Part shown: positions 13,226-46,039 of the stretch, piece after piece
Position numbering within the stretch: position 1 is the first letter of the stretch
How the letters are laid out: each line of letters begins with the position of its first letter
NCBI GenBank assembly: GCA_035583355.1
Contig: DATEZQ010000001.1
Location: 10,566 to 74,565 of the forward strand
Reading direction: 5' to 3'
Source: Minisyncoccota bacterium
GTDB lineage: Bacteria; Patescibacteriota; Minisyncoccia; Phycocordibacterales; UBA6899
Length of the DNA: 64,000 nucleotides
The notes under the pieces: model-generated
Databases searched by the model: none
Told to the model about the DNA's origin: nothing
The model's input: only the letters and a program-made list of their open reading frames with translations
Made by a program: the position numbers and the translations under genes

Positions 13226-14590
13226 ATGTCCATCAATGATCGGCCACGTTGTGGCTTTTGTCTTTCCGATGAAGGGCCGCTTATTCCCGGAAGTGCCGTT
13301 TCTCGTCTTTTTGAAGGCGATGTAGTTCGAGAGATATTGAATGTGCTCGAAGATAACGGAATCTATAATCCCTCTCGAAACATTGCTGATGCAGTCGCGT
13401 ATGTTCATATCTGCCCCAGATGTGTGCTGCGCTATGCAGAGCAAGAGGTAGAGAAGCAGAGGAGTGATGCACGTGAAGATTCGGTTGACTATACACCACA
13501 GACTATTCATGGGTATCTCAACCGTTGGGTCGTAGGTCAAGATCGTGCGAAGAAAACACTCGCAATCGCGATTTACGAACATTACGCGCGAATGCGCATC
13601 AAGGAGATTTCAAGAGTTCCGAGTGATCCGTATCGCGATGTTGAACTCAAGAAGGCGAATGTGCTCCTTATTGGGCCAACGGGTAGTGGTAAAACATTGC
13701 TCATAGAAACGATTGCGCGCTATCTCGATGTTCCATTCGTTGTTGTTGATGCAACGACGATCACGGAAGCGGGCTATGTCGGCAAAGATGCGGATCATTG
13801 CATCAAACGCCTTTTGCTCCTTTCGGATGGTTCTGTGTCTCGCGCGGAACGCGGTATTGTTTATCTCGATGAGATTGATAAGATTGCATGTGCACAGGAT
13901 ACGAGCATCAATCGCGACATTGGAGGTGAGGGAGCGCAGCAGGCGTTACTCAAACTCATTGAAGGGGTCGAGGTTGAAGTGACGACGCGAAGTGATTCGG
14001 GCAGTCCGTCGAAGTCCACAGTGAACACGAGCGGCATACTCTTTATTGCAAGCGGTGCGTTTCCCGGCTTACCCGAGATCATTGGGAAGCGCAAGCATAG
14101 CAGGGGAATGGGTTTCCAGACCTCGCCACAGAAGAAGCAGTGTTCAGAGGATTGCCTCTGTGACGTCACCGTAGAGGATTTGAAGCGCTATGGCCTGATT
14201 CCAGAGTTTCTCGGCCGATTTCCGGTCATTGAGACACTGGAGGCACTCTCTCGTGCTGACCTCATTAGCATCCTCAAGGACCCAAGAAATTCGCTACTCA
14301 ATCAGTATCGCAAGTTGTTCTTATTTGAAGGAATACAACTCACCGTCGACGATGCAGTACTCGAATCTATTGCTGATGATGCTATGGGTAGTGGCACCGG
14401 CGCCAGAGGCTTGCAGAGTGTATTCGAGAAAATCATGAGAGATTTGGTGTACATTATCCCCGGGATGAAAATCGCTGAACCAGACCTGGTCAGTGTTCAG
14501 GTCACGATGAAATATCTCGAGGGCGGAACTGCAACCTTCGGATATAAAGAAAAAGGGCCTGATGGCTCTAGACGACGTGCACGTCGATGA
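13226..14590 (+). CDS. clpX: ATP-dependent Clp protease ATP-binding subunit ClpX
   Basis: N-terminal Cys pairs CGFC...CPRC and Walker A GPTGSGKT. GGAGG lies 4 nt before the ATG at 13226. The N-terminal zinc-binding region carries an extra ~33 aa between the Cys pairs. Confidence 0.85.
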   Translation: MSINDRPRCGFCLSDEGPLIPGSAVSRLFEGDVVREILNVLEDNGIYNPSRNIADAVAYVHICPRCVLRYAEQEVEKQRSDAREDSVDYTPQTIHGYLNRWVVGQDRAKKTLAIAIYEHYARMRIKEISRVPSDPYRDVELKKANVLLIGPTGSGKTLLIETIARYLDVPFVVVDATTITEAGYVGKDADHCIKRLLLLSDGSVSRAERGIVYLDEIDKIACAQDTSINRDIGGEGAQQALLKLIEGVEVEVTTRSDSGSPSKSTVNTSGILFIASGAFPGLPEIIGKRKHSRGMGFQTSPQKKQCSEDCLCDVTVEDLKRYGLIPEFLGRFPVIETLEALSRADLISILKDPRNSLLNQYRKLFLFEGIQLTVDDAVLESIADDAMGSGTGARGLQSVFEKIMRDLVYIIPGMKIAEPDLVSVQVTMKYLEGGTATFGYKEKGPDGSRRRARR

Positions 14591-14593
14591 TCA

Positions 14594-14621
14594 AAAGCGC
14601 TACGATTGTAGCGCTTTTTTA
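14594..14621. terminator. bidirectional terminator between clpX and the convergent minus-strand gene
   Basis: aaaagcgctacgattgtagcgctttttt. Confidence 0.75.
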
Positions 14622-14649
14622 TATGAAAAGGGACCGAAGTCCCTTATGG

Positions 14650-15219
14650 TTACTGCATGCAACATTTTTCCGCGCGCTCGTAAAGGAGCGGGCTTTTATT
14701 GCAGGCGATGTTGATGATCTGGAGGCGCGAATTTGGGAAGTCCCTGTGGTGCAAGAGGATCGCATTACGGATCGCCGCGCACGCATCCTCGAAAGGCTTG
14801 AACAGCGTCGTCTTGTTCGCGTCAAAGCGCGGGATCCCGATGGACACCACACGCATGAGCTCCTTGTCGGCGAGGGTGAGGGCGTTATAGACGATGTCCT
14901 CGATGGAGAGCTTGCCATCATCGACGACGAAGATGACATTGTCGAAACGAACAGGGTACATCTGCGTACGTTCGATCTTGAAAGCACTTCCAGCGGGGAG
15001 CGGGAGCCGCTTTTCGGCTCGGTGGTGGAAGTGATCCCCGACCAGGTGCATGATCGCCTGATCAGTGAACGTCTTTTCGCCGCCACCATCACCAATTGTG
15101 GTGATGATCGCGTCTGCGGCCAGATCGGTGATCGGCCTTTTGTGGATATTGATTGCGGGCACGAGGCCTCCTTTTAGAAAGAACATAATTGACACTACAA
15201 TAAATTTTCTCTTAGTCAA
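14650..15219 (-). CDS. macro-domain-like protein (divergent)
   Basis: By eye it aligns to E. coli YmdB: ITDLAADAIITTIGDGGGEKTFTDQAIMHLVG vs ITKLAVDVIVNAAH..GGGGVDGAIHRAAG, and VSIGIPRFDANKT vs SVAFPAISTGVYG. The overlapping plus-strand ORFs are low-complexity and look antisense. The true start may be internal. Confidence 0.45.
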   Translation of the reverse strand: MTKRKFIVVSIMFFLKGGLVPAINIHKRPITDLAADAIITTIGDGGGEKTFTDQAIMHLVGDHFHHRAEKRLPLPAGSAFKIERTQMYPVRFDNVIFVVDDGKLSIEDIVYNALTLADKELMRVVSIGIPRFDANKTTLFKPFEDACAAIRNAILLHHRDFPNSRLQIINIACNKSPLLYERAEKCCMQ

Positions 15220-15373
15220 GGTGAGTGTGGAGGCTGAACATCACGAGTAATATGCGCGAAATAGTCTGCTCAATAGTGAGCAATTATTCATGAAATATTT
15301 CTTGCAAAATGCTATGCAGGTTTTTTGATGAAATTTTTTTTCACTATCAAAAATATGGCTAACGCTCTGTGTT

Positions 15374-15469
15374 GTGGGGAAAGTGGGACTGTGGATAACT
15401 TTATTGTTGCATAATGGGGGAGAGTGGGATAAAATGGGAACATGTGGGAGAAAGTGGGAAACTTGAGGA
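15374..15469 (+). promoter_or_regulatory. MraZ-box-like direct repeat array upstream of mraZ
   Basis: GTGGGG/GTGGGA/GTGGAT at 15374-15396. Then GTGGGA, ATGGGA, GTGGGA, GTGGGA, TGAGGA at exact 10-bp spacing (15424, 15434, 15444, 15454, 15464). MraZ is known to bind GTGGG-type direct repeats in its own promoter. Confidence 0.6.
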
Positions 15470-15653
15470 ACAAAACATCAGCCACATTCGGGGTCATCAC
15501 CCGAGCAAAAAGATATCGAAGGGCATGTGGGTGCCACTCGGTATCTGCTCGGGGCGATGCCCTGGTGCTGGTGTGTTAGACCTGCTGGTGGGTCTAATGC
15601 ATCAACACTAGGGTAGCGCACAGTTTCATGACGAAACTTAACGTTCAAAATCC

Positions 15654-16088
15654 ATGTTTATAGGCGAATATACAAATACCATAGATGATAAAAAACGACT
15701 TTCTGTGCCCTCAAAATTTCGAAAGGAATTGGGTGAGAAGGCGGTTATCACGTATGGTTTGAATAAAGCGCTTACTCTCTATCCACTCTCAGAATGGGAG
15801 ATCTACGCAGAAAAGCTCGGTAGTCTCTCTGTAGGAAACCCTGAAGAACGTGCATATGCACGTGCAATGCTCTCGGGAGCATTCGAGGTAGAACTCGATA
15901 AGTCAGGACGTATTCTTTTACCGCAGCAGCTCACACAATTTGCAGCTATCGATGGACGTGTGGTGTTCACGGGAATGGCACGCTTCGTTGAGCTCTGGGA
16001 TGAAGCAACATGGAATGCATACCGTACCACCGTTATTCCAAATACTGATGCACTTGCAGAGTCGCTCGGTGCACGAGGTTCAATCTAG
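15654..16088 (+). CDS. mraZ: transcriptional regulator MraZ
   Basis: Two DxxxR-type repeats (TIDDKKRLSVP, LDKSGRILLP). First gene of the dcw cluster. Confidence 0.9.
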   Translation: MFIGEYTNTIDDKKRLSVPSKFRKELGEKAVITYGLNKALTLYPLSEWEIYAEKLGSLSVGNPEERAYARAMLSGAFEVELDKSGRILLPQQLTQFAAIDGRVVFTGMARFVELWDEATWNAYRTTVIPNTDALAESLGARGSI

Positions 16089-16096
16089 AGAGGCGT

Positions 16097-16993
16097 ATGA
16101 AGACACACATAAGCGTATTGTACCAGGAATCACTCGATGCATTGCTGCTCGCCCCGGGAAAGACAATCATTGATGGAACCTTTGGTGCAGGAGGACACAG
16201 TAGGGGTATCGCAGAGAAAATTGGTAAAAAGGGAACACTCATCGCATTCGACCAAGATGGAGAAGTGTTTACAAAACCGATTGTTGACGAAATTCGCTCA
16301 TTCACAAACTTTATTCCAGTTATTGCAAACTTCCGCACGATGGCTCATGAGCTCTCGCAGCAGAAAATTGATCACATTGACGGAGTACTTCTCGATCTTG
16401 GACTATCAAGCACTCAGCTAGAAGTATCAGGCAGAGGATTCAGCTTTCAACGTGATGAACCGCTCGCAATGACGTTCTCGGACAAGCCCGAAGAACAACT
16501 CGTCACTGCAGAAACAGTGGTTAATAATTGGAGTCGCGAAACGATCACCGAGATCCTTAGGGGTTTTGGCGAAGAACAGTTTGCGTGGCGAATTGCGGGA
16601 GCAATCGTTGAAGCACGAACAAAGAGTGCAATAAAAACGACTAATGAACTTGTTGCAATCATCAAGGGGGCAGTCCCTGGATGGTATCAGCACGGTCGCA
16701 CACATTTTGCGACCCGTACGTTTCAGGCTCTTCGTATGGCGGTCAATGACGAGACAGGTAGTGCTGAAGAGGGTATGCGCAGTGCATTCGCACTTCTTGC
16801 GCCGAAAGGGCGCCTTGCCGTCATATCGTTCCATTCGATTGAAGATAGACTAGTGAAACAAACGATGAAGGATCTTGCTGAGCATGCAGGGGGAACCCTT
16901 GTTACAAAGAAACCGATTATTGCAGGCGATGAAGAACTTTCAGAGAATCCACGTAGCCGTAGTGCAAAATTACGCATAATAGAAAAATCATGA
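16097..16993 (+). CDS. rsmH: 16S rRNA (cytosine1402-N4)-methyltransferase RsmH (MraW)
   Basis: HISVL...DGTFGAGGHS SAM-binding motifs. Follows mraZ. Confidence 0.9.
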   Translation: MKTHISVLYQESLDALLLAPGKTIIDGTFGAGGHSRGIAEKIGKKGTLIAFDQDGEVFTKPIVDEIRSFTNFIPVIANFRTMAHELSQQKIDHIDGVLLDLGLSSTQLEVSGRGFSFQRDEPLAMTFSDKPEEQLVTAETVVNNWSRETITEILRGFGEEQFAWRIAGAIVEARTKSAIKTTNELVAIIKGAVPGWYQHGRTHFATRTFQALRMAVNDETGSAEEGMRSAFALLAPKGRLAVISFHSIEDRLVKQTMKDLAEHAGGTLVTKKPIIAGDEELSENPRSRSAKLRIIEKS

Positions 16994-17126: not shown

Positions 17127-17468
17127 ATGCAAACACTCTACGCAAAAGCAAATGTAATGAACTCTTGGTACGCACAGAACGCACGTACTGTTTTCACTGT
17201 GATGCTCGCAATTCTTATTGCTAGCTTTGCTTCGTACATGTTTTTCATGGTTTCTTCATTGTCTTCTGGGGTCGCATATCAGAAGGTGCGTCGTGAGATT
17301 GCAAATACTGAATCACGCATTGCAAACCTTGAGGCTGAGCGTATTGCACGCATGAAAGCAGTTGATCTTGCATTTGCAAAGGATCGTGGCTTTGTTGAGG
17401 TTTCGCCTACTCGATATATTGCTTCTGCGGCAGCAACTGAGAAATTTACAATGCGTGACGCGCGCTAA
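17127..17468 (+). CDS. FtsL-like cell division protein (small bitopic membrane protein with coiled coil)
   Basis: Sits between rsmH and ftsI. Has one TM plus a leucine-zipper-like helix. Confidence 0.5.
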   Translation: MQTLYAKANVMNSWYAQNARTVFTVMLAILIASFASYMFFMVSSLSSGVAYQKVRREIANTESRIANLEAERIARMKAVDLAFAKDRGFVEVSPTRYIASAAATEKFTMRDAR

Positions 17469-17474
17469 TCCTCT

Positions 17475-19307
17475 ATGCGGAATCCACGTCAGTTACGATT
17501 GCGCTTGGCAAGCATACCCGTCCTACTCATAGGGCTGGTTTTTATTGCCCGATTGTATAATTTGCAAGTGCAGCACGGAAAGGAGTACGCCGCAGAGGGT
17601 GAGAAACAATATGTTTCAACCTCAGGCTACACCTATGAGCGAGGCAAGATATTCATGATGAACAAAGACGGGGAACGTCTTGAAGTTGCGAATATCGCAC
17701 AAGGGTGGCTCATGACTATCAATCCGCAGTTGATTACAAATCCGGAGGAAACGCATCAGAAGATTGCAGCATTCTATCCTTCGCTGTCATACACAGAGTT
17801 CATGAGTAAGTCGGCGAATAAGCAGGTGAAGTATGCAGAAGTTGCACACCGTGTTCCCGACGAGATTGGACTTAAGATTAGTGCACAAAAGATTACAGGA
17901 GTGCAGTTGTTTAGGGAAACCTGGCGCACGTACCCTGGTGGAGATATCGGAGGTCAGGTAATCGGCTTTGTGGGACATCAAGGTGACGACTTCACTGGTC
18001 AGTATGGTGTCGAACGCTACTACAACGAGGCGCTCACCAGAAACGAAGATAACATCAGAGTGAATTACTTCGCTGAACTTTTTGGGAGCATAAAAAATGT
18101 TGTCTATGATCGTAAGGAGGAGGAGCGTGGAGATATTGTGCTGACACTCGAGCCAACCGTACAGTCATTGCTTGAGCATACACTTACGAAGGTGCAAAAC
18201 GAATGGAACTCGAAGCAAGTAGGAGGGATTGTGATGGATGCGAAAACTGGTGCAATTTATGCCATGGCAGCAAATCCCACATTTAACCTCAATGAATATG
18301 GAAAAGTGAAAGATATCTCCGTATTTCGTAATCCGCTTGTAGAGGATGTTTTTGAGATGGGCTCCATCATGAAGCCTCTTACGGTTGCTGCGGGAATTGA
18401 TACTGGAGTCATTACTTCGAACTCTGTCTATAATGACGTTGGGGTTATGCGTCTGAATGCAAAGACCTTTAGCAATTACGATGGAAAAGCACGTGGTCCA
18501 AATACTCCCGTGCAGCAGATTCTAAGTCAATCCCTTAATACTGGTGCTGCATATGTTGCACTCAAAGTAGGGAAGGAGCAATTCAAGGACTACTTTTTGA
18601 ATAAGTATCAGCTTGGACAGGAAACTGGTATAGATCTCCCTGGAGAGGCTCATGGTCTTATTTCAAATTTTAATTCGAAGCGTGATATTGAGACGGCTAC
18701 CGCATCCTTCGGTCAGGGCTTTGCTGTGTCACCGATCAATACGATTGTTGCACTCGCTTCACTTGGGAACGGAGGCTATTTGGTTACACCACACGTGATG
18801 TCGGAAATCGTCTACAGTAATGGTACAACGCGTAAGATTGTAGCTCCGACGCCGGTACCGATTTTGAAACCAGGCACATCTGAAGAGATCTCGCGCATGC
18901 TCGTCACCGTCGTTGACAAGGCTCTTCTTGGTGGCAAACTAAAGATTCCCGAGTATACAGTCGCTTCGAAGACGGGAACAGCACAGATTGCACGAGCAGA
19001 TGGAAAGGGCTACGAAAAGGATAAATATTTGCACACGTTCTTCGCCTATGCGCCTGCATATAATCCACGATTCATTATCTTCTTGTTCAATAAGGAGCCG
19101 CAGCATGTGGACTACGCATCACAAACGCTTGGTGCACCCGCCATGGAGCTTGTACGTTTCTTGCTCAACTACTACAATGAAACACCAGATCGCGCCTCAA
19201 GCATTGAGAAGCCTTTATTCCCAAAGCAGGCAGATCCTGAGCCAGTAATCATTCCTACTCCTGCCACTTCCACTACTCCTGCAACCTCAACGCGAACAAC
19301 AACATAG
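17475..19307 (+). CDS. ftsI: penicillin-binding protein (FtsI/PBP3-like transpeptidase) with Pro/Thr-rich C-terminal tail
   Basis: SxxK (GSIMKP), SxN (SQSLN) and KTGTA motifs. The C-terminus is PTPATSTTPATSTRTTT. Confidence 0.8.
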   Translation: MRNPRQLRLRLASIPVLLIGLVFIARLYNLQVQHGKEYAAEGEKQYVSTSGYTYERGKIFMMNKDGERLEVANIAQGWLMTINPQLITNPEETHQKIAAFYPSLSYTEFMSKSANKQVKYAEVAHRVPDEIGLKISAQKITGVQLFRETWRTYPGGDIGGQVIGFVGHQGDDFTGQYGVERYYNEALTRNEDNIRVNYFAELFGSIKNVVYDRKEEERGDIVLTLEPTVQSLLEHTLTKVQNEWNSKQVGGIVMDAKTGAIYAMAANPTFNLNEYGKVKDISVFRNPLVEDVFEMGSIMKPLTVAAGIDTGVITSNSVYNDVGVMRLNAKTFSNYDGKARGPNTPVQQILSQSLNTGAAYVALKVGKEQFKDYFLNKYQLGQETGIDLPGEAHGLISNFNSKRDIETATASFGQGFAVSPINTIVALASLGNGGYLVTPHVMSEIVYSNGTTRKIVAPTPVPILKPGTSEEISRMLVTVVDKALLGGKLKIPEYTVASKTGTAQIARADGKGYEKDKYLHTFFAYAPAYNPRFIIFLFNKEPQHVDYASQTLGAPAMELVRFLLNYYNETPDRASSIEKPLFPKQADPEPVIIPTPATSTTPATSTRTTT

Positions 19308-19308
19308 T

Positions 19309-20631
19309 ATGAAAAACTTTCTTCGAGACATCACTACACGCATTATGTCCGCGCTTGCAGAAAGCGCGCTTTTGCGACATAAACCGTTTATTATCGGAGT
19401 CACAGGTAGCGTGGGGAAGACGACGACAAAAGACGCAATCGCGCACGTGCTCGCAGAACACACGAGCGTGCGCAAGAGTGATAAGAGTTTTAATAGTGAG
19501 ATTGGGCTACCTTTGGCGATTCTTGGGCTTCCGAATGCATGGCTTAGTCCGTGGGGCTGGTTCAAGAATATCGTTGCAGGAATAAAGATTGCATATTTCC
19601 ATAAGGAGTTTCCAAAGGTACTCGTACTTGAAATTGGCGCAGATAAGCCGGGTGATATCGGTCGTGCGATGAAGTGGATTCATCCATTGATTGGTGTGCT
19701 GACTAGGCTGCCCGATAGGCCAGTACATGTCGAGAATTTTCCTACGCCCGAGCTTGTGCGTGAAGAAAAGGCAAAGTTGATTGCAGCACTTCCAGAAAGT
19801 GGCGTATTTGTCGCAAATGCAGATGATGAGCGCGTTATGAAACTTGCCGAAGATGCACACATGAAGGTAATTAGTTATGGTTTCAAGGAAGGCGCAATGG
19901 TTATGGGTAGTAGCGTTGCTATCACATATGCGGATGCCAAGAAGACTATTCCTCGTGGTGTTTCGATGGACGTGACTTACGGTAGGGAGACCGCCGTGGT
20001 ACATATTGATGGCGTGCTTGGTGAGCATATTCTCGCAAGTGCACTTGCCGCAATTGCGGTGGCGCTTGCACGCGATATACGCTTCATGGATGCGGTTAGA
20101 GACGCAAGTGGATGGAAGACTGCACCAGGAAGAATGCGTATCATAAAAGGCAAAAATGGAGCAACCATAATCGATGATAGCTATAATGCTTCACCCGTAG
20201 CGATGAGAGCCGCTCTTGATACACTCAAAACTATTCCTGCTGTTCACCGTATTGCGGTGCTTGGGGACATGCTCGAACTTGGTAAGTACAGCGATGAGGA
20301 ACACAAAGCTGTCGGAGCATACGCAGCATCTTTCGTTTCTGGACTTGTTGTAGTCGGGAAGCGCGCACGACTAATGGCCGAGGCGGCCCTCCTTGCAGGA
20401 CTCCCCGCTAATCGCATTCGCATATTTACCAACTCCGTTGAAGCGGGTGAGGCGCTTGCTCGTGAAATTGGAGAAGGTGATGTGCTCCTCGTGAAAGGTT
20501 CACAAGGAAGTGGTGCAAATATGGTGCGCATGGAACGAGCGACAAAGCAAATGATGGCAGATATTGCCGATGCGAAGAAGCTTCTCGTAAGGCAGGAGAT
20601 GGAATGGGAAAAGCAATATCGAAAGGTATAA
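19309..20631 (+). CDS. murF: UDP-N-acetylmuramoyl-tripeptide--D-alanyl-D-alanine ligase
   Basis: GVTGSVGKTTTKD P-loop, NSEIGLPLAIL, DDSYNASP and Mur ligase C-terminal domain. Confidence 0.8.
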   Translation: MKNFLRDITTRIMSALAESALLRHKPFIIGVTGSVGKTTTKDAIAHVLAEHTSVRKSDKSFNSEIGLPLAILGLPNAWLSPWGWFKNIVAGIKIAYFHKEFPKVLVLEIGADKPGDIGRAMKWIHPLIGVLTRLPDRPVHVENFPTPELVREEKAKLIAALPESGVFVANADDERVMKLAEDAHMKVISYGFKEGAMVMGSSVAITYADAKKTIPRGVSMDVTYGRETAVVHIDGVLGEHILASALAAIAVALARDIRFMDAVRDASGWKTAPGRMRIIKGKNGATIIDDSYNASPVAMRAALDTLKTIPAVHRIAVLGDMLELGKYSDEEHKAVGAYAASFVSGLVVVGKRARLMAEAALLAGLPANRIRIFTNSVEAGEALAREIGEGDVLLVKGSQGSGANMVRMERATKQMMADIADAKKLLVRQEMEWEKQYRKV

Positions 20632-34766: not shown

Positions 34767-34993
34767 CCGTGCTTGCGGACACGGACTTCTCGGTAAGCCG
34801 TCAAGCATTAAGCGCGCATCGTTTCATAAGGACCGTGAAGAACCTTATGGCGTATGTGTGCTCGCAGCCACGAGCGGTCTATGCTTATAATATAGCATAT
34901 TTTAAAGAAAAGTGGAGTGCCTGAGCACTCCACTGTGGATAACTGATTTAGTCAACTTTTAGGGCCAAAAACTTTCCGTCTCATCTCATGGCG

Positions 34994-44521: not shown

Positions 44522-45970
44522 TTAAAATGCTGCGAATGCATCGTCGCTGTCGCCACCACCATATCCTGCGTGCATTGTGTCGATTTCGCGGAAGCTTGTG
44601 TGCTTTCCGTCGAAGTGTAACTCGACAACTCCAGTGGCACCATTACGGTGCTTCTCGATAAGGATTTCAGCAGTTTCACTGCGCTCACCATTCTCATTCT
44701 GTTCACGGTGAATGAACATGACAACGTCAGCGTCTTGCTCGATAGAACCTGAGTCGCGAAGGTCAGAAAGCCTTGGCTTTCCTCCACGCTGCTCCACGTT
44801 ACGAGAGAGCTGTGAGAGGGCAATAACAGGCACTTTAAGGTCCTTTGCGAGGCCCTTGAGTGAGCGAGAGATTTCCGTCACAATCTGCACCTGTGAGTCA
44901 GATTGGCGCATAGGGCTCATGAGTTGGAGATAGTCAACAACAATGAGCTTTACTCCGTATTCACTCACCATGCGGCGCGCGGTCGAGCGCATATTCATGA
45001 TGTTGATGCCCGCCTGATCATTGATATAGATTGGAGCCTTAGACAAGCGATCGATACCTTCGCGGAGATACTCAAATTCATTGTCTCTCGAGAGTTTACC
45101 GGTGCGAAGCTTCCATGCATCAATGCGTGATTCTGCCGAGACCATACGATCGATGATTTGCTGTGCGGACATTTCGAGCGAGAAGACGCCGACGGGGATC
45201 CCATGCTTGATCGCAGATCCGCGTACCATGTCGAGTGCGAACGAGGTCTTACCCATCGATGGACGTGCAGCAAGAATGATGAGGTCCGAAGGCTGGAAGC
45301 CCGCGAGCATCTTGTCGAGTGAAGGGAACCCAGTTGGAATACCACGGAGACCATCACCTGCTTCAGAAAGTTTTTCAAATCGCTCCCATGCTTGAGTTGC
45401 ACCATCTTTCATGCCAAGGATGGTTTGTCCTGGCGTCATCTGGGTAACCTTAAACACCGTAGCTTCCGCTTCATCAAGAATTTCCTCGAGCCCACGGTCT
45501 TCCTGAAAACCAAGTTCGGAGATTTGCTCTGCACCAGTGATGAGCTGACGGAGGACGTGTTTGCGGTGAATAATGTCTGCGTAGTGCCGAGCGTTGGCAG
45601 AAGAGGGGACTGCGTTGGTGAGTTCGGTCAGATAGGTGTGACCACCGATCTGTTCGAACTGTCCACGCTCAGAAAGTTTTGCTGACATCGTGAGGAGGTC
45701 GATAGGTTCACGACGGTTGTGGAGGTCGAGCATTGCCTGATAGATGATGCGATGCTTCTCCGCATAGAATGCCTCGGGGAGAATGAGGTCTGATACTTCG
45801 TAGAGTGTGTCCGCACGGATCATGAGTGCACCCAAGAGTGCGCGCTCAGAATCGAGATGTTGAGGAGGGATACGAATAGAGCTGAGGACGGGTGTGCGCT
45901 GTTCATTACTTCCGTAACTGCGCTTGTTGTATGGCTTCTTCTCGTACTGCGTGCTGGGAACGTTTTGCAT
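44522..45970 (-). CDS. dnaB: replicative DNA helicase DnaB
   Basis: DnaB N-terminal domain and RecA-like core (GARPSMGKTSFAL, Walker B VVDYLQLM). Confidence 0.9.
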   Translation of the reverse strand: MQNVPSTQYEKKPYNKRSYGSNEQRTPVLSSIRIPPQHLDSERALLGALMIRADTLYEVSDLILPEAFYAEKHRIIYQAMLDLHNRREPIDLLTMSAKLSERGQFEQIGGHTYLTELTNAVPSSANARHYADIIHRKHVLRQLITGAEQISELGFQEDRGLEEILDEAEATVFKVTQMTPGQTILGMKDGATQAWERFEKLSEAGDGLRGIPTGFPSLDKMLAGFQPSDLIILAARPSMGKTSFALDMVRGSAIKHGIPVGVFSLEMSAQQIIDRMVSAESRIDAWKLRTGKLSRDNEFEYLREGIDRLSKAPIYINDQAGINIMNMRSTARRMVSEYGVKLIVVDYLQLMSPMRQSDSQVQIVTEISRSLKGLAKDLKVPVIALSQLSRNVEQRGGKPRLSDLRDSGSIEQDADVVMFIHREQNENGERSETAEILIEKHRNGATGVVELHFDGKHTSFREIDTMHAGYGGGDSDDAFAAF

Positions 45971-46003: not shown

Positions 46004-46039
46004 ACTGTGGATAACGCGCGTTGTCCACAATGTGGTTAA
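46004..46039. promoter_or_regulatory. cluster of three DnaA-box-like 9-mers upstream of dnaB
   Basis: TGTGGATAA (perfect complement of TTATCCACA) at 46006-46014, TTGTCCACA at 46021-46029 and TGTGGTTAA at 46031-46039. Confidence 0.5.

Follow-up and report, generated by a model that had tools for sequence, protein, structure and literature searches.

The locus considered here lies in a stretch of DNA of 64,000 nucleotides, called the window below, and its first operon gene is mraZ (15654-16088, + strand), which encodes a protein of 144 amino acids (Pfam PF02381, 1.7e-32). Directly downstream, and on the same strand, are rsmH/mraW (16097-16993), a gene for an FtsL-like small membrane protein (17127-17468; weak matches, with E about 0.06), an FtsI-type PBP gene (17475-19307) and a Mur ligase gene (19309-20631). 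The genes between 16097 and 20631 are presumably controlled by the mraZ promoter. The 5' side of mraZ contains an array of phased GTGGGA-type boxes, a predicted promoter that interlocks with it, a perfect DnaA box and a structured leader.

The MraZ protein scores 123.2 bits against the NCBIfam equivalog TIGR00242, for which the cutoff is 98.35. Its alignment to the M. genitalium cryo-EM chain (9qlr) is gapless, the two DXXXR motifs are found at residues 11-15 (D11-R15) and 82-86 (D82-R86), and the DNA-contacting residues K13, R15 and R86 are all present. Unchanged copies of the protein are found on two Logan contigs. The nearest genomes, which are uncultured MAGs, are "bacterium SKS1.bin43" (L003, with a MraZ identity of 94%) and two assigned to "Candidatus Saccharibacteria" (L004 and L005).

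The intergenic region is bounded on its upstream side by a divergent macro-like gene on the − strand (14650-15165), which has homology to L003 and an AAGGAGG sequence before its GTG start. A + strand ORF at 14587-15177 (196 or 143 aa), called on the Logan contigs, was rejected in favor of this gene. The match to L003 has an E value of 1.6e-33 in the − frame, compared to 7e-5 in the overlapping + frame, and the public gene calls at 14587-15177 are thus probably on the wrong strand. Since the − strand gene ends the region at 15165, the intergenic region extends from 15166 to 15653.

Two further observations can be made about this region. The mraZ start codon is not preceded by a recognisable Shine-Dalgarno sequence (15640-15653), and the same holds for the other CPR loci displayed, while neighbouring genes do carry one, for example the AAGGAGG before the divergent gene at 15165. 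Also, a + strand promoter-like pair, TTTAGA-17-TACAAT (15173-15201), is followed by terminator-like hairpins with T-runs at 15267-15282 and 15301-15320. These signals (15173-15330) are located in the AT-rich part of the intergenic region; relatives do not conserve them, and they could represent a small transcript or chance matches.

The phased box array and its conservation

The array consists of six in-phase positions on the + strand, which by direct reading start at 15414, 15424, 15434, 15444, 15454 and 15464, that is, with an exact 10-bp period. Numbered from the predicted transcription start, box 1 (ATGGGG, 15414-15419) is inside the promoter spacer at about −28 to −23, box 2 (GTGGGA, 15424-15429) abuts the −10 hexamer at about −18 to −13, and box 3 (ATGGGA, 15434-15439) overlaps the last two bases of the −10 at about −8. 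Box 4 (GTGGGA, 15444-15449), at about +3 to +8, is invariant in all clade members. Box 5 (GTGGGA, 15454-15459), at about +13 to +18, is kept in the displayed clade members, with ATGGG in L167. The degenerate box 6 (TGAGGA, 15464-15469) is at about +23. Three of the six cores are thus GTGGG, two are ATGGG (boxes 1 and 3) and one is TGAGG, with box 6 being without a TGG core. The first-pass annotation had described five boxes starting every 10 bp; all five were found in phase, but box 1 had been missed.

Upstream of the array, box a (GTGGGG, 15374-15379, + strand) is located exactly 40 bp from box 1, and box b (GTGGGA, 15383-15388, + strand) is directly 5' of the DnaA box. These two are spaced by 9 bp and do not form a phased array. 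Box a is specific to the window: the corresponding sequence in L003 is TTACGG, and none of the other relatives has the box. Box b is kept by roughly half of the close lineages (L003, L004, L163 and L084); L171 has a degenerate version, and the box is missing from L005, L165, L166 and L169. It may be an auxiliary MraZ box. All boxes of the two clusters described earlier are found where they had been placed; the second cluster is a conserved phased array, and the first is only partly conserved. The array itself is 185-240 nt upstream of the mraZ ATG (15654), and all boxes together lie at a measured 185-280 nt, in agreement with the range of ~180-280 nt given previously.

One can ask whether the array is merely a chance or low-complexity purine-rich repeat that has no function. 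The frequency of the single GTGGGA hexamer would be in line with this, as 19 copies are found in the 64-kb window compared to 20.6 expected. However, precisely because the lone word occurs at chance frequency, the signal has to be sought in the phased clustering and not in the word. The two-box pattern RTGGG-N5-RTGGG has 4 matches in 64 kb, all in the array, where 0.22 are expected, and the three-box pattern RTGGGR-N4-RTGGGR-N4-RTGGGR has 3 overlapping matches, again all in the array, while no three-box match is obtained in any of 100 shuffles. Tandem Repeats Finder likewise reports a period-10 array at 15423-15461, with the consensus AGTGGGAAAA. The shuffles, and the conservation of the array between flanks that cannot be aligned (see below), effectively refute an origin by chance, whose probability we consider to be close to nil.

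For the comparison with other genomes, mraZ loci were gathered from a genome collection, from metagenomes and by exact-protein look-up, which yielded about 95 distinct loci ranging from CPR to Enterobacteriaceae (32 CPR-like and 62 non-CPR). Eleven distinct close relatives, with MraZ identities from 94% down to 61%, were considered (L003, L004, L005, L084, L087, L163, L165, L166, L167, L169 and L171). The core GTGGGATAAAATGGGaaCATGTGGGAGAAAGTGGGAA, with 4-5 phased boxes, is present in all eleven, which answers positively the question whether the array exists in orthologous mraZ promoters. Further upstream, the sequences of these relatives cannot be aligned with each other, and the neighbour gene on that side differs as well, being lysS in L163, DUF6624 in L166 and the − strand macro-like gene in the window.

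Across the ~95 distinct loci, phased GTGG boxes are located 5' of mraZ in nearly all cases, and of the 192 intervals between boxes, 181 measure exactly 10 bp. The number of boxes varies: three are found in 42 of the 62 non-CPR loci, the CPR-like loci most often have four, and in this tally the clade of the window has five or more. The window shares box 1 with L003, L004, L163, L005 and L171, and it is missing from L087, L165, L166, L167 and L169. The position of box 6 is kept as CTGAGGAA in the nearer relatives, reads CTGAAAAA in L165 and L169, and is absent in L005. Because it is kept in the CTGAGGAA form in the nearer relatives, box 6 may be part of the leader RNA rather than of the operator.

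Predicted promoter and fit to known MraZ sites

By direct reading, a promoter of the sigma-70 type can be predicted, with a −35 hexamer TTGCAT (15407-15412, + strand) and a −10 hexamer TAAAAT (15430-15435, + strand) separated by a 17-bp spacer, and the transcription start is predicted near 15442. The −35 is conserved, with TTGCAT, TTGCAG, TTGCCA or TTGCAA in all close relatives, and the −10 is TAAAAT, TAGAAT or TACAAT in the clade. Most of the displayed loci from distant CPR lineages also have a −10-like TAnAAT hexamer (TATAAT or TAAAAT) directly 3' of a GTGG box, and since the hexamer follows a GTGG box across CPR, this gives strong, if indirect, support to the −10 assignment. The pair TTGCAT-17-TAAAAT interlocks with the boxes. 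It was not called by a generic promoter scan, because the −35 agrees with the consensus at only 3 of 6 positions.

The array fits what is known about MraZ binding. EMSA and cryo-EM work has defined the site as GTG(G/T) cores separated by 6 nt and contacted by K13, R15 and R86, with cooperative binding to several boxes (PMC12957436). In M. genitalium, one subunit binds per box, cooperatively, and transcription starts inside box 1 (PMC12957436). In B. subtilis, repression depends on three GTGG[A/T]G motifs that are 4 nt apart (bioRxiv 10.1101/2022.02.09.479790). The repeats of B. cenocepacia are four in number, each 7 nt long and 3 nt from the next; they are 3' of the −10, "as in E. coli", and overlap with the start of transcription (PMC7761207). 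That MraZ boxes overlap the −10 or the transcription start is a property of the known systems (PMC12957436, PMC7761207, PMC8475190). The earlier statement that MraZ binds arrays of GTGGG-type repeats in the dcw promoter agrees with these sites in both motif and period.

The window shares with the MBRs of E. coli, B. subtilis, M. gallisepticum, M. genitalium and B. cenocepacia the GTG(G/T) direct repeats with 10-bp period, the location 5' of an operon headed by mraZ, and a MraZ protein with two DXXXR motifs and K13, R15 and R86. The overlap with the −10 and start known from these systems is predicted for the window. There are also differences. The usual number of boxes in an MBR is three, or four in some Mycoplasma and Burkholderia, whereas the window has five good boxes and a degenerate sixth. 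Unlike the MBRs of the known systems, the boxes fill the promoter spacer and continue to about +28, and one of them is fused to the −10 (TAAAATGGGA). Finally, the distance of 185-240 nt to the start codon is unlike that of known MBRs, which is explained by the long structured leader discussed below.

By analogy with the M. genitalium cryo-EM structures, one GTGG core would be contacted in the major groove by K13, R15 and R86 of each MraZ subunit. With a period of 10 bp, the boxes would all face the same side of the helix, which would allow cooperative binding by an opened MraZ ring. As the boxes are located at about −28, −18, −8, +3, +13 and +23, bound MraZ is expected to occlude the −10 and the start site, covering a span of about −28 to +28. 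This occlusion would shut off mraZ-rsmH-ftsL-ftsI-mur and would thus constitute negative autoregulation.

Another option to be considered is that the phased GGG tracts form a G-quadruplex on the non-template strand, and that this structure controls transcription instead of MraZ. The array does fit the canonical rule of four G3+ tracts with N1-7 loops (GGGGGAGAGTGGGATAAAATGGGAACATGTGGG). A quadruplex has also been reported for the mraZ promoter of S. aureus, where both a reporter and in vitro transcription-translation are described as affected (PMC11796246), and the window resembles that case in having G-rich repeats with four or more G-tracts at the mraZ promoter. However, the G-tract property is not conserved in the CPR relatives, in which the GTGG period is kept. 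A canonical motif is found 5' of mraZ in 11 of 32 CPR-like loci and in 2 of 62 other loci, in contrast to the near-universal phased GTGG boxes, and many relatives have GTGGT or GTGGA boxes that cannot give three-G tracts. Nor does a quadruplex require the conserved T before GGG or an exact 10-bp period. Quadruplexes with 7-nt loops are weak. The quadruplex potential looks like a by-product of an array that has four or more GTGGG boxes, and control by such a structure in place of MraZ seems to us quite improbable.

The proposal in the first-pass annotation that the array is a candidate MraZ autoregulatory operator is thus strengthened by the calculations and comparisons above: the array is kept in relatives, it fits the published site, and the contact residues of MraZ are retained. 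Autoregulation by MraZ through phased GTGG repeats is already established in E. coli, Bacillus, Mycoplasma and Burkholderia, and an intact MraZ array in Saccharibacteria/CPR is an extension of this known mechanism, in itself unsurprising.

The DnaA box upstream of the promoter

We now consider the element just upstream of the −35. A perfect ACTGTGGATAAC box had been reported to overlap the first cluster. It is indeed found, at 15388-15399, but what had been left unexplained is that it contains a consensus DnaA box. The criterion used for DnaA boxes is the 9-mer TTATCCACA, with the relaxed form TTATNCACA, and the window has a perfect match at 15390-15398, which reads TTATCCACA on the − strand and TGTGGATAA on the + strand. 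The 9-mer lies at about −52 to −44 relative to the predicted start, and the extended 11-mer CTGTGGATAAC is located at 15389-15399.

An unbiased count of the 9-mers present in the 400 nt 5' of mraZ gives the DnaA 9-mer as the most widely shared one, with 26 of 32 CPR-like loci, compared to 19 of 32 for the best MraZ-box word. It is found upstream of mraZ in only 1 of 62 non-CPR loci, and elsewhere in just 2 loci across 149 kb of flanks. The box is conserved in Saccharibacteria, Paceibacterota, Uhrbacteria, Nomurabacteria and Berkelbacteria. In the CPR-like loci it is present in both orientations (16 forward and 13 reverse). Among the loci where the −10 could be assigned, the majority have the start of the box 38-51 nt 5' of this hexamer, most often at 40 nt and irrespective of orientation. 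In the literature searched, no report of a DnaA box at a CPR mraZ was found.

The TGTGGATAAC element could alternatively be an additional MraZ box of the first cluster, with a GTGGA core, rather than a DnaA site. It adjoins box b, TGTGGATAA contains GTGGA, and this sequence is accepted as a MraZ core in view of the B. subtilis motif GTGG[A/T]G (bioRxiv 10.1101/2022.02.09.479790); GTGGA boxes are, moreover, found within the arrays of L010, L017, L019, L023 and L028. However, in 26 of 32 loci the element shows no variation at any of its nine positions, unlike MraZ boxes, whose fifth position and flanks vary. MraZ boxes are always direct repeats, whereas the DnaA-type element is found in both orientations. 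The distances to the neighbouring boxes are 8 and 23 bp, that is, out of phase, and the 11-mer is also the first of three clustered DnaA-type boxes 5' of dnaB, where a MraZ array is absent. We therefore regard the assignment as a further MraZ box as unlikely, and the element is treated as a DnaA box in what follows.

The 11-mer CTGTGGATAAC has 3 copies in the window, all intergenic, where 0.02 are expected. One of them belongs to the cluster just mentioned, which consists of three DnaA-type boxes within 35 bp (46005-46039), namely a perfect CTGTGGATAAC, TTGTCCACA and TGTGGTTAA. They precede dnaB, the gene for the replicative helicase (44522-45970, − strand), by 36-70 nt, which suggests a DnaA regulon with a replication gene among its members. 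The third copy (34933-34943) comes directly after a strong hairpin, AGTGGAGTGC-CTGA-GCACTCCACT, in a 410-nt gap between convergent genes, with no obvious target. A motif search found no dnaA gene in the window.

Some relatives show additional elements in the same part of the promoter. A relaxed second DnaA box, TGTGCATAAC, which fits TTATNCACA, is found ~90-130 nt upstream of the perfect box in L087, L165, L166, L169 and L167; L167 has two tandem copies of it, and in L087, L166 and L169 a GTGGG box lies before it. An ATGGCT-N-AGCCAT palindrome precedes the DnaA box by ~5-40 nt in L165 (where it reads ATGGCTATACATAGCCAT), L166, L169 and L004. Only a half-site of it, ATGGCTAA (15356-15363), is present in the window, and the palindrome could be the site of another regulator or a terminator remnant.

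With a perfect DnaA box next to direct repeats and an AT-rich stretch (15170-15370), a replication origin or an iteron-like element has also to be considered. The GC skew is, however, uniformly positive over the 64 kb and does not switch sign at 15.4 kb. Besides the one perfect box, there is a single one-mismatch box, TGTGGATAT (15141-15149), and this is 240 bp away in coding sequence, within the divergent gene. The repeats, furthermore, accompany mraZ in every genome examined and fit the MraZ site. With the flat GC skew and just one perfect DnaA box, the origin reading is rejected as very improbable.

A DnaA box at this promoter has a counterpart in B. subtilis: PMC2533591 and PMC8203912 cite Goranov 2005 for the binding of DnaA to the yllB(mraZ)-ftsL promoter and for the repression of this promoter by DnaA. 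As far as these citing accounts describe it, the likeness is that the initiator, predicted in our case, targets an operon headed by mraZ and containing ftsL and pbpB. On the same accounts, dnaB carries DnaA sites in both organisms, with the difference that B. subtilis dnaB encodes a helicase loader while that of the window encodes a DnaB-family helicase. A further difference is that DnaA binding is reported in these sources for B. subtilis, whereas the window offers evidence at the sequence level, namely a single perfect consensus box, near-fixed just 5' of the −35. DnaA at 15390-15398 would probably modulate the same promoter as MraZ.

The structured leader and the dcw promoter

Between the last box and the ATG there are 185-200 nt in the window and 200-306 nt in the clade, compared to medians of 59-73 nt elsewhere. 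This stretch belongs to a predicted 5' leader of roughly 210 nt, whose structured part is placed at 15479-15624 (+ strand), and in which covariation-supported hairpins are located at 15479-15638. They are P1 (15500-15553), with an invariant apical CATGTGGGTG, and P2 (15554-15619), with 28 bp; a small P3 hairpin (15622-15638) is given by fold prediction. The predicted transcript 15442-15660 has a folding energy of −93.7 kcal/mol with z = −6.9 on the + strand, compared to z = −5.2 on the − strand, and 11 of the 73 pairs in the + strand fold are G·U.

The structure is seen in the window and in L003, L004, L087, L163, L165, L166, L167 and L169. In an alignment of eight sequences, 95.7% of the cells pair, compared to 32-50% when the partners are slid, and compensatory changes are found in 11 pairs, compared to 1-3 in the slid controls. 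In addition to the apical CATGTGGGTG of P1, a 5' CAGCCAC is invariant. A covariance model (R1) built from the leader sequences matches mraZ leaders only, including a new one in L167, and an Rfam scan of 14500-16500 with E <= 1 matched no family. There is a likeness to the mraW RNA motif (RF01746), an actinobacterial leader upstream of mraW/mraZ, in that both are structured RNAs in the 5' region of the same operon; the leader of the window differs in being a distinct structure restricted to its clade and without an Rfam match.

Two other explanations for the leader sequence were rejected. Small ORFs within it (15414-15611 and 15442-15579) would have their frames broken by 2-nt indels in the relatives. 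A dispersed repeat or MITE was discarded too, as the window has no other copy and the covariance model is confined to mraZ leaders.

It can be noted that the apical loop of P1 contains an invariant GUGGG, which resembles a MraZ box, and that GUGGG is also found at the apex of P2 in most members, with the exception of L004 and L163. These apices could possibly be downstream auxiliary operators or points of contact between MraZ and RNA. The leader itself could act in stability, processing or translation control.

The distance of the operator to the start codon is much beyond the usual 30-100 nt. There may be an unrecognised second promoter closer to mraZ, but no promoter nearer to mraZ than the array is visible.

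Taken together, we find it very likely, on the grounds of sequence comparison, that the array is the MraZ operator of the dcw promoter in a Saccharibacteria-like (CPR) bacterium, with autorepression and a probable DnaA input. More tentatively, and with somewhat less than even confidence, one can propose that the dcw promoter in Patescibacteria acts as a dual-input switch, in which the DnaA box at −52 to −44 and the MraZ array would couple replication to the division and cell-wall operon; in the clade of the window, the leader is a possible third layer. Within this proposal, no single MraZ box is as well conserved as the DnaA box.

CPR bacteria are poorly characterised with regard to gene regulation, and the mraZ promoter offers three predicted cis-elements in this respect: a MraZ array that is longer than usual, a near-universal DnaA box at a near-fixed position, and a clade-specific structured leader. 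As Saccharibacteria are described in PMC10633639 as cultivated and genetically manipulated, these predictions are testable in principle. The position of the DnaA box suggests a direct coupling between replication and division in these organisms.
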